From assembly GCA_963749495.1 (NCBI GenBank), contig CAVVMW010000005.1, forward strand, positions 320,001-384,000: a stretch of 64,000 nucleotides of DNA. The letters are read 5' to 3'. Of this stretch, positions 48,001 through 51,000 are shown in pieces; position 1 is the first letter of the stretch, and every line of letters begins with the position of its first letter. A program made the position numbers. This DNA comes from an uncultured bacterium. Its GTDB lineage: Bacteria > Verrucomicrobiota > Verrucomicrobiia > Limisphaerales > UBA8199.

Positions 48001-51000
48001 AGCAGCCCCCAAGAAAGGAAATCCAGGACTTGTGGAATATCCAGCATGGTGCGCTTGTGGAATCAGCGCGGGCGGTGCTGGCCCAAGGCGAGATCCTCGG
48101 AATCAATTTCTCGGGCGCCGAAATCACGCTCAAGGATGTGATTGCGGTCCACCCATATATGCGGGGCGGATACGGGGCCGTGGATGGCGTCGATGCGGGG
48201 CCGCTCCGGTTCATATTGGGCGTGAGGTCGGACAAGAAGTCGAAGGCCGGAACGTCCCATCGCGGGAGACTACACGCTTACGGCAATACGGGGGCTGCGA
48301 GGTCCGGCACGGTGGACCATCGAAGACCGGCTCCGCTGGGAGAAATTCCCCGGCGGCTTGCTCGGAGAAAAGGAAGTCGCAGACCTGGCTTTTGAAAACT
48401 ACGTGGCCGAGCACGATGTCCTTCCGCCGGGCACAGCCGCACCCGACATCGAGTTCGTCCGGTTGGACAATGAAACCAAGGCGAAGCTGTCCGATTTTCG
48501 GGGCAAGGTAGTGCTGTTGGAGTGGTGGTCAACATACTGCGGGCCATGCCAGCGGCCAATGGCAGAGCTACAGGCGCTCGGAGTGCATCGCCCCGAGTGG
48601 AAGGGTAAGGTCGAGATCATCACGGTTAGCATTGATGACGATCTGCGTCAGGCCAAAGAACATCTGGCAAAGCAGGGGTGGACGAACTGCGTTAACGCCT
48701 GGGCTGGTCCCGGGGGCTGGATGTCTGGTCCTGCCAAGCAGTTCCGGCTTCACGCCCTGCCGACCTGTTACATGATCGGCTCCGAAGGGAAGGTCGCGCA
48801 TGCGGGGTATCCTTGGAGTGTTTCACCGGAGGACCTGCGCCGATTCGCTCAGTGACCAGATGCCGGCGCGTCCAGTCTTCGCCGAGGATGGCCCGGCCCA
48901 ATGCTTCCGCCTCGGGATCGCGGGTAAACACTCGCTCCCGGACCTGGCCGGCGTGGGTGCAGGGGATACACCTTGCTCCAAGACAGTGGCGGCAGGTTCT
49001 CAGGGATTTGGTTAGCATGGGGATACTGCGGACGTTGGAAGTGACACGGCTTGTGACCTGTCCGCCGCATTAACCGGGGTCACCGGCCACTGTGCGATTA
49101 TGGGGTTGCCAAGCTGGCCTGGATCAGCATATTCGGGCCATGCGGAAGCGGGTTTATATCGTGCTTGCTGCGTTGCTGCTCGCCGTGATTGGGCTGGCGA
49201 TATGGGAGGGAACGCGCAAACGGGAGCCCAGCCGGCTTACAACGGGAAGCGACTGAGCTACTGGGTTAACCATGTGGCCTGGGACGGTTGGACCGAAGCT
49301 AGCAAAATGACCTTCGAGTCAAACGCAGTCCCTTTTTTAATCAAGTGCTTGGAGAAGCGCGAGAGTCCGCTGCGCCGGTTCTATTGGACAGCGTGGCCTA
49401 AGCTGCCCAGGTGGATAAGGAACCGATTGCCAAACGCCATGTCTCAGCAAGCCCACTCCAGGACGGTTCGAGCCGGCGTGACAATGGCCTTGGGCAATAT
49501 GGGGACGGACGCGAAGCCTGCAATTCCAGTGTTGATTCGGATGCTTGGAGGGGACGATTTCGTGGAGAGTTCGCTCGCGATAGGCCCACTGGGCAACCTT
49601 GCGTTAGAGGAGCCGTTTGGGGAACCGTCGGCTAAGCGGGCGCTGATCAACGCACTGAATCGACACCGAAGGTGGGAGATCCGCCAACAGATTGCGCAGG
49701 AGGTGGTAAACCGGGCCTATAGAGAACAGGACTTCGTGAGCGCACTTCGCGAATGGCTGACCGACACCAATCCTGTGGCGCGGACATTGGCAACCGATCT
49801 ACTCCAGCGCGCTGCGCACCGGGCCTCCGAATCCAACGCCGCTGAGGGTAAACTCCCAGAGAAGTCGGAGTGAACACCAACTCCCCGGGCTTGGAACCGA
49901 CGCGCCGCATTCCCGCCCGCCATTCCTGACGAGCGTCACTCTGCGATTTATCGGCCTATTTCTTCTCGCCGAGCAGCTTGACGGCGGCCAGATCATCCTC
50001 AGTCAGGCCTAGGGCAGCCAGGGCTTGCGCACGGGTGATGGCTTGTGCCGACAGCTTGGACTTGACGAGGCGCCTGGTGCCCGTGCTCTTGCGCAATTGG
50101 CCCAGATCGGGGATACACCCCTGCTGTGTGGCGGGATGCAGCCAAGCGGTGGCGAGGATCAGACGGTTCGCCCCCTCATCCGCCGAGGCAGCATTCCCCC
50201 TAAAAACGGCATTCGAAGAAGCTGGCCAGAGCCCCATGGGCCTGATTCTCCGGGTATGCCGCCTCAAATAGCTCCCATCAGGGCTCACCCTCAAGTTGAG
50301 GGCGCCAGTGCGCCAGGGCCAGAGGCCCGGAATGTGATAGCCTGGGCTGGAGCGAGTCAGACGAGCGGAGGCCCAGGTCAACCACCGTCGCGAACCTCCT
50401 CAGCCCTGTAAGATTCCCGGAACGAATTCGCGCTTTGCGCCCCTGAACCTCGACACTGCGTTCCCGTCCCGCGTAGCGTTTTGGACTGCGGCAGTCCTCT
50501 GCCGCTTTTCCAACCCCAGCGCGCACGAAAGCGGCAGAGGACTGCCGCAGTCCAAAACCTTCGGACTTGGTGTCGGTTCATGGGGAGCCCCCTTTGGCTT
50601 CTGCCAATGCATTGGGACCGTGAACCGGTCAGGGGCCCCGAGGCTGCGAAGCGTTTTGGACTGCGGCAGTCCTCTGCCGCTTTTCCAACCCCAGAGCGCA
50701 CGAAAGCGGCAGAGGACTGCCGCAGTCCAAAACCTTCGGACTTGGTGTCGGTTCATGGGGAGGGCGTCACCCCTCATGTCCCAATCTCTGGCCAACATCG
50801 TTGTTCACCTCGTCTTCAGCACCAAAAGCCATCTTCCGCCCCTACAGGGCGGAGGAAACGTCTCTTTCGGCTCCTACCTGGGGCTCTGCGCATGCGCGCT
50901 TCACCCCAGGCTTTCACATTGCGGGCCTTCGGCCCTCTTGTTGTGCAGGCTACTAGTGACTAGACCGCAGGGCAGGGCCTTCCTGCTTCCAGGTGCAGCG

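Follow-up and report, generated by a model that had tools for sequence, protein, structure and literature searches.

What self-cleaving RNAs do directly behind small genes, and tail to tail with HEAT-repeat genes on the other strand, is the question raised by contig C5 of this uncultured verrucomicrobial genome. The twister ribozyme class is said to have been described by Roth et al. in 2014. A review (PMC6765202) gives bacterial twisters neighbours in common with hammerheads, and phage genes among their surroundings, records a proposal that they process polycistronic mRNAs, and calls their role still undefined. The window analysed here is the whole stretch of 64,000 nucleotides, C5:320001-384000, in which a window position equals the contig position minus 320000.

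Twister-P5 ribozymes were called with the RF02684 covariance model at its curated cut-off (gathering threshold) of 37.6 bits. Among the 12 matches listed for the whole genome, six lie above the cut-off with 39.9-53.1 bits (C5:377727, C6:13802, C15:297598, C5:369885, C4:515697, and C14:533025). The survey's finding of these six, with a seventh just below (C5:369045-369096, window 49045-49096, 34 bits), was reproduced, and a truncated eighth copy was added (C5:377830-377895, window 57830-57895, 23.3 bits). Per-genome E-values of the copies range from 1e-9 to 3e-6 and no control genome holds a match above the cut-off, which together exclude chance; as judged by the covariance model, the copies are genuine type-P5 twister ribozymes. 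At least six more twister fragments occur in the genome besides these eight. Chance was taken to account for the weak Infernal or BLAST matches at C10:581025, C4:569941, and C22:203622. The copies are spread over five contigs, each of 0.5-1.25 Mb, and the genome's hairpin repeat, present on 22 of its 31 contigs, adjoins the C4 and C15 copies. With five large contigs involved and a genome-wide repeat beside the copies, contamination is an unlikely cause of their uniqueness.

The window holds four of the eight copies, T1-A and T2-A at locus A (window 49045-50237) and T1-B and T2-B at locus B (window 57727-58150). The interval first reported for locus A, 49140-50240, is right and covers the stretch between the HEAT start codon and the beginning of the small ORF; the correct offset is 320000 rather than 352000. 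Locus A comprises the following features:

49956..50237, minus strand: small ORF A, 93 codons including the stop (ORF and translation)
49885..49945, minus strand: Twister-P5 copy T1-A (Rfam, 43.0 bits)
49140..49873, plus strand: HEAT-repeat gene of locus A, broken (ORFs, Pfam)
49106..49133, plus strand: sigma-70-like site, the sole such site in window 48800-50800
49045..49096, minus strand: Twister-P5 copy T2-A (34.0 bits, below the cut-off)

T1-A begins 10 nt past the stop of small ORF A and is chimeric, with a 5′ half of the C15/C4/C14 type and a 3′ half of the C6 type, and has a mismatch at one position of pseudoknot T1; its cleavage, at what we take to be the site within the motif, is predicted between window 49912 and 49911. 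T2-A lies on the same strand, 849 nt downstream of T1-A and just past the HEAT promoter. The survey had overlooked this second twister, which has the same orientation and, seen from T1-A, lies beyond the HEAT gene. Between the two ribozymes, the membrane-anchor frame of the HEAT gene runs from ATG 49140 and ends after 38 codons, the HEAT body follows in the frame of the ORF 49100-49873, and the ribozyme-encoded tail, frameshifted, is in the third frame. Just 6 nt separate the sigma-70-like site from the HEAT start codon, which suggests that the HEAT mRNA of locus A is leaderless; inspection by eye finds the site conserved upstream of several HEAT paralogues.

Locus B comprises four features:

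57836..58150, minus strand: small ORF B, 104 codons, ATG start
57830..57895, minus strand: twister copy T1-B (23.3 bits)
57779..57829, plus strand: HEAT gene start remnant and upstream promoter-like region (ATG 57822; gene body deleted)
57727..57778, minus strand: Twister-P5 copy T2-B (Rfam, 53.1 bits)

Small ORF B has lost its stop, and its frame continues into the degenerate T1-B. The 5′ two-thirds of this ribozyme are of the C6 type; its 3′ third (P4 and loop) is replaced by HEAT coding sequence, the first ~10 codons of the deleted HEAT gene. The remnant region is 87% identical to locus A over 167 nt. Every pairing and core position of T2-B is canonical, its cleavage is predicted between window 57754 and 57753, and a codirectional alpha-L-fucosidase gene lies ~140 nt after it. 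IS elements and gene fragments surround the locus.

Helices P1, P2, and P4 of the copies align to the model in the Infernal alignments. The exceptions are two single mismatches, in P2 of the C15 copy and in P4 of T2-A, which also carries a core substitution. P1 exists as three unrelated sequences, each of which forms the stem. The partners in pseudoknots T1 and T2, whose positions we presumed from the literature, were then tested on 82 distinct foreign twisters, where Watson-Crick pairing holds in 78 and 81 for the two T1 pairs and in 80 for T2. T2 pairs in every complete copy of the genome, and T1 pairs in T2-B, T2-A, C6, C15, and C4 and is mismatched in T1-A and C14. The T2 pseudoknot also covaries among the genome's copies, its pair being changed on both sides, which suggests that selection acted on the fold once the copies had separated. 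Folded together with their flanks, the C6 and C15 copies are closed at minimum free energy by a P5 stem of 6-10 bp, which the folds of the C4 and T2-B copies do not show. The copies share with type-P5 twisters (RF02684) the conserved core, P1, P2, and P4, the closing P5 stem, and, with T1 mismatched in two copies, the pseudoknots; unlike that type, several copies carry disabling-looking changes, and the 3′ strand of P5 and P4, read in the opposite direction, doubles as the final part of a coding frame.

The condition of the copies is uneven. Only two or three of the eight pass all pairing rules, the two at 53.1 bits obeying every one, and five either are incomplete or deviate at a paired or core position. 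That most copies are in poor condition had likewise gone unremarked. From their pairing, T2-B, C6, and probably C4 are intact and would be expected to cleave themselves. T1-A, the copy within the reported interval, may be dead, because its T1 mismatch is of a kind found in just 2 of the 82 foreign twisters.

The genes facing the ribozymes do encode HEAT repeats, as had been reported (Pfam HEAT_2, E 2e-10 to 2e-12). That their 3′ ends lie a short distance from the ribozyme holds at locus A and C14, where the genes end 11 nt and 68 nt away; at C15 and C6 the HEAT ORF instead overlaps the ribozyme, by 12 nt at C15:297650 and by 45 nt at C6:13846. In translation, the complement of P5/P4 supplies the final 7-19 codons and the stop of the HEAT genes, and the junction with the HEAT frame is identical in all copies. 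Nearly all database homologues (119 of 120) are without this ribozyme-encoded tail, the sole exception being a metagenomic HEAT protein; 47 of the 120 share the same four terminal residues, and the plain HEAT end is also found in congeners and in other paralogues. Six of the seven tail-type loci keep the HEAT gene or its start, and no copy away from the HEAT family was found in the genome apart from the bare C4 copy.

On its other side the ribozyme adjoins a small gene. A gap of 6-10 nt between stop and ribozyme had been claimed for four copies; it measures 6-11 nt at A, C15, C14, C6, and C4 and is absent at B. The claim of a conserved peptide end directly before the ribozyme stood: small ORFs A and B are 81% identical as proteins over the shared 70 residues, and the 31 of 210 nt that differ between them fall 9, 4, and 18 at codon positions 1, 2, and 3, a third-position bias that is the coding pattern of substitution. 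Alignment identifies this mini-ORF as the C-terminal half of an uncharacterised protein family of ~140 residues. In small ORF A only the last ~70 residues belong to the family, with repeat-derived sequence upstream of them, and the window copies lack the full-length architecture of N-terminal strands and helices followed by the C-terminal half. A natural short form of 75 residues, P0012, exists in the database; like the members P0009, P0013, and P0018, it comes from JGI/IMG.

A profile made from the window copies and searched against 1.84 billion representatives retrieves 25 proteins at E <= 1e-3: two from the studied genome, five large repeat proteins that were set aside from the small-protein family count, and 18 small proteins of 75-210 aa. 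The small proteins are recovered at E 1e-20 to 1e-3. Near-length word searches returned only the window's own two proteins with the window peptide and, with the L072 protein, itself and two weak partial matches. The small protein has no Pfam or PHROG match, and Foldseek with the AlphaFold2 model of one family member (mean pLDDT 80) finds nothing at E <= 1e-3 in PDB or BFVD. A search of 400 other genomes of the phylum did not find the family, and a narrower family alignment, A3, yields no confirmed relative in metagenome_contigs or viral_contigs.

A twister behind a member of this family occurs at L072, a locus of another verrucomicrobial MAG, where the ribozyme begins 3 nt past the stop of a full-length member and a codirectional RadC-like gene comes next. 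The window peptide matches the ORF upstream of the L072 twister with a pairwise E of 2e-5, and a four-tail profile singles out L072 among 80 foreign twister loci and finds only the four known places in the genome. A combined pattern of peptide end and twister core hit 12 metagenome stretches, 11 of them by chance, the other (L164) being a twister behind an unrelated ORF, and had zero hits in viral contigs. Outside the studied genome, the link between the small-gene family and twisters rests on a single locus, L072.

The surroundings of foreign twisters provide a standard for comparison. Among 74 foreign twister-P5 loci, 63 have a codirectional ORF of at least 45 codons that starts within 70 nt downstream (31 in the mirror-strand control), and in 33 an ORF terminates no more than 25 nt upstream (14 in the control). 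Behind the tail-type copies no codirectional downstream ORF was found, the next gene being convergent; only T2-B is followed by a codirectional gene. The survey had offered a gene context for bacterial twisters as new, and one is already in print in the review PMC6765202, where bacterial twisters and hammerheads lie near small phage-like genes; the 74 foreign loci sampled here have this same position between cistrons. The loci of the studied genome resemble those in that a small hypothetical gene ends immediately before the ribozyme. They differ in that the next gene is convergent and overlapping and belongs to a chromosomal HEAT family, and in that the arrangement occurs at 7 loci of one genome.

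The reading that best accounts for the whole, in our view, is that of a twister unit behind a small gene, joined to HEAT genes, reshuffled among them, and mostly decayed; about half of our confidence lies with it. Four other explanations were weighed against it. The first is that the copies are relics only, leftovers of a degraded mobile-element operon that were passively duplicated with HEAT ends and have no present function. The defects in five of the eight copies and the further fragments fit such an origin, as do the truncation of the small ORFs, the hairpin repeats cut into two loci, the position of locus B amid IS elements and gene fragments, and a congener copy decayed below Infernal detection. 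Relics would not, however, be expected to include two copies at 53.1 bits that obey all rules, a two-sided T2 change between copies, or a small ORF with a coding pattern of substitution, and we consider this explanation rather unlikely.

How the copies spread can be read in part from the HEAT genes and from relatives. On a tree of 63 HEAT proteins, built by a quick method and with five long branches flagged, the 7 ribozyme-bearing proteins need six changes, and constraining them to be monophyletic lowers the log-likelihood by 99.9 units (AU p 6.2e-5). This non-clade distribution, together with the chimeric T1-A, argues that recombination reshuffled the ribozyme-bearing ends among HEAT paralogues; ends and bodies would have been exchanged, and either part may have been the mover. 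The statement that none of 44 other genomes of the family has a match over the cut-off was confirmed and extends to 150 sampled from the order. The conclusion that the ribozyme had spread only in the studied genome gave way to three finds: a decayed ribozyme copy at the end of a congener HEAT gene, the metagenomic tail-bearing HEAT protein, and the twister behind the small gene in the other MAG. Six HEAT loci of the genus, among them the one with the decayed congener copy, give no Rfam twister match at E <= 1. A 3′-part pattern aimed at further copies occurs at 19 places in 18 other genomes, 18 of the 19 being chance in coding DNA. The best HEAT matches in three congeners are at 43% identity or less, and congeners are therefore without orthologues to compare.

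The survey had interpreted this distribution as the work of a small, self-contained mobile cassette, inserting repeatedly and specifically at HEAT 3′ ends with the twister as its 3′-end former. Homology between copies does span 42-271 nt as stated, and its boundaries are sharp: past the 3′ end of the ribozyme, 10-12 of 12 positions agree in the first block and agreement drops to the random level within 24-48 nt, and the C4 and C6 copies have only ~25 nt upstream in common. Ribozyme regions are 86-93% identical (C15/A and C15/C4), compared with 31-49% for the adjoining HEAT proteins. The scatter over the HEAT tree and the constant junction with the HEAT frame in all copies also suit a cassette. 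Against it, the conserved flanks pair with each other as P5, and a separate explanation of the flanks is therefore unneeded; the short repeat taken for an element of its own is mostly the P5 stem of the ribozyme together with the last codons of the small gene. No inverted ends besides P5 were found, and where the neighbours of a copy were scanned, no transposase or integrase adjoined it. On the 5′ side the shared sequence can be as short as 25 nt or as long as 270 nt. With P5 as the only inverted repeat and copies confined to HEAT loci except at C4, the unit does not have the character of a MITE-like element. The gene reported as interrupted at C15 is indeed truncated and has a paralogue at C10, 70% identical over 84 residues; a clean insertion there was rejected, as the remainder of the gene is nowhere near, and the 5′ junction is instead an illegitimate fusion to the truncated gene. 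The HEAT start and promoter region with the second twister is equally patchy, which fits gene-end exchange between paralogues. We consider a cassette unlikely.

A third explanation starts from the paired ribozymes. Same-strand twisters would excise an RNA of ~840 nt antisense to the HEAT gene and its promoter and thereby tune expression. Convergent gene pairs with overlapping 3′ ends form antisense or 'excludon'-type arrangements, and the loci resemble these in that the RNAs transcribed from the small gene and from the HEAT gene necessarily overlap at the 3′ end; they differ in having a self-cleaving RNA in the overlap, which could sever one strand without RNase III. At locus A the twisters flank the gene on the opposite strand, 849 nt apart, remnants of a second twister adjoin HEAT starts at C15 (two loci), C30, C8, and C14, and the overlap of HEAT frame and ribozyme makes the transcript ends necessarily complementary. 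The second twister is, however, intact only at locus B, which has lost its HEAT gene; at locus A the second twister and the gene are both damaged. The tail is also missing from most HEAT paralogues, as from the database homologues, and no promoter-like site for the small ORFs was found at A or B on the strand antisense to the HEAT gene. Antisense control thus seems improbable.

Retrozymes and related ribozyme-flanked retroelements of eukaryotes have two ribozymes of the same orientation that bracket a sub-kilobase, multicopy unit. The HEAT module shares the same-orientation pair around a sub-kilobase unit in several copies; unlike retrozymes, its ribozymes are not copies of each other, it is without long terminal repeats or signs of an RNA intermediate, and its gene lies on the opposite strand. 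Ribozymes in retrotransposons are covered in a section of the review PMC6765202. It is very improbable that the module is a bacterial retrozyme counterpart, whose RtcB-joined antisense RNA would act as a circular regulator or as a template for gene-end copying; if it were, the excised unit-length RNA would carry the 5′-OH and cyclic-phosphate ends that RtcB joins, and one RtcB copy is found 40 kb away within the window. Retrozyme-like spread, in which the segment between the twisters is transcribed, cut at both ends, circularised, copied into DNA, and reinserted to multiply the HEAT module, is scarcely credible: same-orientation ribozymes do flank ~0.85 kb, one end of the second-twister remnant C15:272316-272356 lies no more than one base from the predicted cleavage site, the T1-A chimera is joined at the conserved core that contains this site, and the genome has 10 matches to the RtcB family, but the flanking ribozymes are of different, locus-constant types rather than homogenised as cutting and rejoining predicts, the boundaries of the other remnants miss the cleavage site, no reverse transcriptase was seen nearby, although no search was aimed at one, and RtcB, common among bacteria, also occurs in 10 of 14 control genomes.

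We therefore return to the reshuffled and mostly decayed twister unit behind a small gene. The full unit would be ~100 nt long, a ribozyme closed by P5 that begins 6-11 nt behind the stop of the small gene. Its ancestral setting may have been that of a twister between codirectional small genes of mobile-element-like operons, as at L072. The unit would then have been joined tail to tail with a membrane-anchored HEAT-repeat gene, the complement of P5/P4 becoming the end of that gene, and a second twister of the same orientation would have come to lie just past the HEAT promoter. Ectopic exchange or gene conversion at the conserved HEAT ends could have placed ribozyme ends on several gene bodies and contigs, and insertions of the hairpin repeat, deletions, and point changes would have damaged most copies.

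Transcription, cleavage, and any benefit we infer from this arrangement. Intact copies (T2-B, C6, and probably C4) would cut during transcription, ~40-50 nt past the stop of the small gene. Cleavage would leave the small-gene mRNA with a hairpin-capped 2′,3′-cyclic-phosphate end and would detach read-through RNA that otherwise runs antisense into the HEAT gene. The earlier proposal that the twister forms a 3′ end is reasonable for a ribozyme placed behind a stop codon, because no terminator-like sites were found at loci A and B. With the HEAT gene frameshifted at locus A and deleted at locus B, there may be nothing left to insulate in the window.

These results refine a context already suggested for bacterial twisters and do not overturn current views. 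If the preferred reading is true, one job of a bacterial twister would be that of a terminator substitute and antisense insulator, severing convergent read-through. The ribozyme has a named partner, an uncharacterised small-protein family with a twister behind its stop codon in two unrelated genomes. As the complement of the ribozyme is part of a protein-coding frame, RNA fold and protein tail constrain each other. The eight copies form a natural series, from canonical to damaged, that predicts which would cleave and which would not.

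A whole-genome Rfam search for the Twister-P5 ribozyme lists 12 matches in the source genome, six of them above the 37.6-bit cut-off, which no control genome reached in the same search. Four of the genome's eight twister copies lie inside the window, at two loci, A (49045-50237) and B (57727-58150). Each locus carries a tail-type copy behind a small ORF (T1-A, T1-B) and a second copy beyond a HEAT promoter (T2-A, T2-B). The interval 49140-50240 named in the survey's finding stands; its offset of 352000 does not, since the window corresponds to C5:320001-384000. The reading we favor, to which we give an even chance, is that a twister unit behind a small gene was joined tail to tail with a HEAT gene and that ribozyme-bearing gene ends were reshuffled by recombination.

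Twister-P5 copies and the HEAT start in the window
49045-49096, same strand as T1-A: T2-A, 34.0 bits, seventh match of the genome
49140, plus strand: HEAT start codon of locus A; a sigma-70-like site ends 6 nt before the ATG
49885-49945, minus strand: T1-A, Rfam match at the gathering threshold
57727-57778, minus strand: T2-B, Rfam match at the gathering threshold
57830-57895, minus strand: T1-B, 23.3 bits, eighth match of the genome

Read along the minus strand, locus A consists of the small ORF, T1-A, a plus-strand HEAT gene with its start and promoter-like site, and T2-A. T1-A begins 10 nt after the small ORF's stop codon, the HEAT gene ends 11 nt from T1-A, and T2-A lies 849 nt downstream of T1-A on the identical strand. 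The sigma-70-like site is the only one in the 2-kb region. The HEAT gene itself is broken: the membrane-anchor frame ends after 38 codons and the body lies in a different frame. Locus B shows the same order, but of its HEAT gene only about ten codons and the promoter region survive; the deletion extends into T1-B, which has lost its 3′ third, and leaves T2-B intact. A codirectional alpha-L-fucosidase gene follows T2-B after ~140 nt. Between the two loci, identity is 82% over 271 nt that cover the small ORF and first ribozyme, and 87% over 167 nt that run from the HEAT start through the promoter and second ribozyme to 50 nt past it.

Several other features occupy the window. A MITE/REP-like perfect-hairpin repeat of 84 nt occupies 50476-50559 and 50652-50735, upstream of small ORF A; it is found at ~249 loci on 22 contigs (498 BLAST HSPs genome-wide) and is mis-scored by Rfam as mir-4796 and mir-1791, below their cut-offs. 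An Acido-Lenti-1 match (50877-50936, plus strand; 37.6 bits against a cut-off of 37) lies ~0.7 kb from locus A. The gap between T2-B and the fucosidase gene (57640-57700, minus strand) holds a short widespread element with dozens of 30-55-nt matches across contigs. Locus B is surrounded by an ISL3-family transposase (54379-55653, minus strand), a DruA-like (Druantia) fragment (58626-59525, plus strand), and nearby IS66-family transposase pieces (59471-60983, plus strand), and the region looks heavily rearranged. A dense tRNA cluster at 2487-6165 (minus strand) comprises eight Rfam matches, which coincide only partly with the five genes called by ARAGORN (Gln, Arg, Val, Arg, Cys). Two opposite-strand Acido-Lenti-1 matches fall in that region (5473-5519 and 5632-5678), and beside it lies an RtcB-family match in three adjoining, possibly frameshifted pieces (7345-8443, minus strand); RtcB-family matches in the genome number 10 altogether.

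Of 210 nucleotides aligned between the two small ORFs, 31 differ, distributed 9, 4, and 18 over codon positions 1, 2, and 3, with 14 synonymous and 13 non-synonymous codon changes. This third-position bias indicates that the small ORF has been coding during its evolution. When 5.8 billion clusters were searched by word index, only the window's own two proteins came back. A twister-pattern scan of one genome per species provided a lead, L072, a stretch from a MAG labelled Verrucomicrobia subdivision 3 in which a 143-residue ORF stops 3 nt before a twister-P5 and a RadC-like gene follows the ribozyme; the C-terminal 59 residues of that ORF can be aligned with ORF B at 27% identity (E 2e-5). A profile of four tails, run against 1.84 billion representatives, matches 25 proteins at E ≤ 1e-3: two from the source genome, 18 small proteins of 75-210 residues (15 of them inspected), and five large LRR/HTH/Sel1/ankyrin repeat proteins, which we excluded as repeat artefacts. 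Alignment shows that the window's ORFs match only the C-terminal half of this ~140-residue family, which has one natural short form of 75 residues (P0012). Neither Pfam nor PHROG gave a match for the family, and the confident model of one member (mean pLDDT 80) has no structural neighbor in the PDB or BFVD at E ≤ 1e-3. Two genomes suggest a link between the family and the twister.

The copies differ widely in condition. For the partners of pseudoknots T1 and T2 (not to be confused with the copy names), we applied the pairing rule to the source genome after checking it against 82 distinct foreign twisters. Watson-Crick pairing holds in 78 and 81 of these for the two T1 pairs, each with two main pair types, and in 80 for T2; the nucleotide that precedes the cleavage site is U in 64, C in nine, and G in nine. 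T2-B and the copy on contig C6 satisfy every pairing rule, and the C4 copy departs from them only by an additional base in its P4 loop. P2 contains a mismatch in the C15 copy, the C14 copy has a T1 mismatch and an altered loop base, and T2-A has a core substitution and a P4 mismatch, while T1-B is without P4. In T1-A, the 5′ and 3′ halves come from different types, hence its T1 mismatch. In an additional copy (C15:271457-271516), the 5′ part is replaced by the 84-nt hairpin repeat. That the twisters are relics without present function, a view partly overlapping ours, is a possibility we rate at about half the weight of the favored reading. Set beside this damage are the intact copies and the T2 pair, which has changed on both sides between copies and argues that the fold was under selection at some point following their divergence.

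The favored joining of twister and HEAT gene is visible in the reading frames. About a dozen HEAT paralogues in the source genome are 28-52% identical to the C15 copy by tblastn; relatives have one to three. Wherever a tail-type twister is present, the HEAT frame extends into it, so that the antisense of the P5 3′ strand and P4, and in two genes of part of the core, encodes the final 7-19 codons together with the stop. The junction falls at the same codon in every case. Twister-less paralogues and homologues of three congeners have a plain end. Among 120 database homologues, 47 share the same four final residues and many more have close variants; only one, P0049 on a 3.7-kb metagenome contig, has the ribozyme-encoded tail.

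All tail-type copies share a stretch that begins ~25 nt ahead of the ribozyme and ends 12 nt past it. When the C6 and C15 copies are folded with their flanks, a 6-10-bp stem between the flanks closes the whole motif; this is the P5 helix, after which the twister-P5 permutation is named. In the first block beyond the ribozyme 3′ end, most pairs agree at 10-12 of 12 positions, and identity becomes random within 24-48 nt. The conserved flanks therefore belong to the ribozyme and to the small gene's last few codons and stop, and the separate short repeat proposed in the survey's finding dissolves into these two parts.

Complete second twisters occur only at loci A and B. Fragments adjoin the conserved HEAT start and promoter elsewhere:

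C15:298421-298447, second-twister fragment
C15:272316-272356, second-twister fragment
C30:83013-83039, second-twister fragment
C8, C14 (two places), and C2, more decayed fragments

Their position beside HEAT starts points to an older module of small gene, twister, opposite-strand HEAT gene, HEAT promoter, and twister.

No Twister-P5 above the cut-off was found in 44 other genomes of the family or in 150 sampled from the order. Exact matches to a pattern of the 3′ part and flank are confined to the source genome and a single congener site (G002:C62:12279-12302); 18 one-mismatch places elsewhere, all in coding DNA, were rejected as chance. At the congener place, a HEAT homologue has a ribozyme-type tail and the ribozyme 5′ part is gone; Infernal detects no twister there. 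The arrangement thus predates the source species and extends beyond it, contrary to the earlier view that it had spread only in this genome. In a maximum-likelihood tree of 63 HEAT proteins, from which the tails had been trimmed, the seven ribozyme-bearing genes occupy at least four positions, requiring six changes, of which well-supported branches force at least two. Keeping them in a single clade costs even the best tree 99.9 log-likelihood units (AU p 6.2e-5). Long branches in five rows and the quick method make exact placements uncertain; the rejection of a single clade is strong notwithstanding. Repeated precise loss that brings back the plain end is implausible, so ribozyme-bearing ends must have recombined with gene bodies among paralogues. 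Homology for such exchange would come from the family's conserved start and tail, and the chimeric T1-A and an illegitimate C15 fusion to a truncated gene, whose remainder is absent, are its traces. The truncated gene (C15:297263-297586, plus strand) encodes a Tat-signal protein that breaks off after ~88 codons and continues in frame into the small gene's last 19 codons; an intact 818-residue paralogue (C10:614352-616805, minus strand) and a fragmented copy (C7:65078-65823, plus strand) exist. A self-contained cassette targeting HEAT ends, also partly overlapping our reading, is somewhat less probable than relics: no twister copy was found away from the HEAT family in the source genome, the bare C4 copy aside, and no transposase was found next to the copies whose neighbors were scanned.

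Twisters of other bacteria offer a comparison. The pattern scan yielded at least 120 stretches, from Acidobacteriota, Clostridia, Planctomycetota, Dehalococcoidia, and others. Among the 74 matches listed that have 400 nt on both sides, 63 have a codirectional ORF of at least 45 codons starting within 70 nt downstream (mirror-strand control, 31), and 33 have an ORF ending within 25 nt upstream (control, 14). Most of 100 flanking ORFs lack a Pfam match; a phage-like minority includes Rha, a Cro/C1-type protein, ParA, an integrase arm-binding domain, and a methylase. One Clostridia MAG (JAFYOX010000031.1) carries four same-strand copies spaced 490-720 nt apart, each between small ORFs, and another stretch (L056) has two copies 347 nt apart. 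Many MAGs of Acidobacteriaceae, Terriglobales, and Sulfotelmatobacter (L015-L087) carry a closely similar 58-59-nt twister-P5, often ~20 nt upstream of a 58-79-codon ORF without Pfam match, which looks like a conserved ribozyme-gene pair. This neighbor pattern agrees with the review PMC6765202, where bacterial twisters have neighbor genes in common with hammerheads and lie close to phage genes; proposed roles there are polycistronic transcript processing and 3′-UTR effects, with the purpose undefined. A search of literature listings outside subscription journals returned no report of a twister overlapping a gene end or of a link to HEAT genes.

Neither locus A nor locus B has a terminator-like site, and no promoter was found for the small-ORF strand. 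From the place of the cleavage site in the motif, the cut is predicted 40-50 nt behind the small gene's stop. In this setting, an intact copy would give the small-gene mRNA a defined end, capped by the P1 hairpin, and would sever RNA continuing antisense into the HEAT gene. We infer this role from sequence; the HEAT partners in the window are broken or deleted. Antisense control through the twister pair partly overlaps this reading and is improbable. Retrozyme-like spread, likewise overlapping in part, is very improbable.

The twister feature of this genome is real, and its loci are of value because they provide a partner gene family, a ribozyme overlapping a protein frame, and intact as well as damaged copies in a ready-made series.
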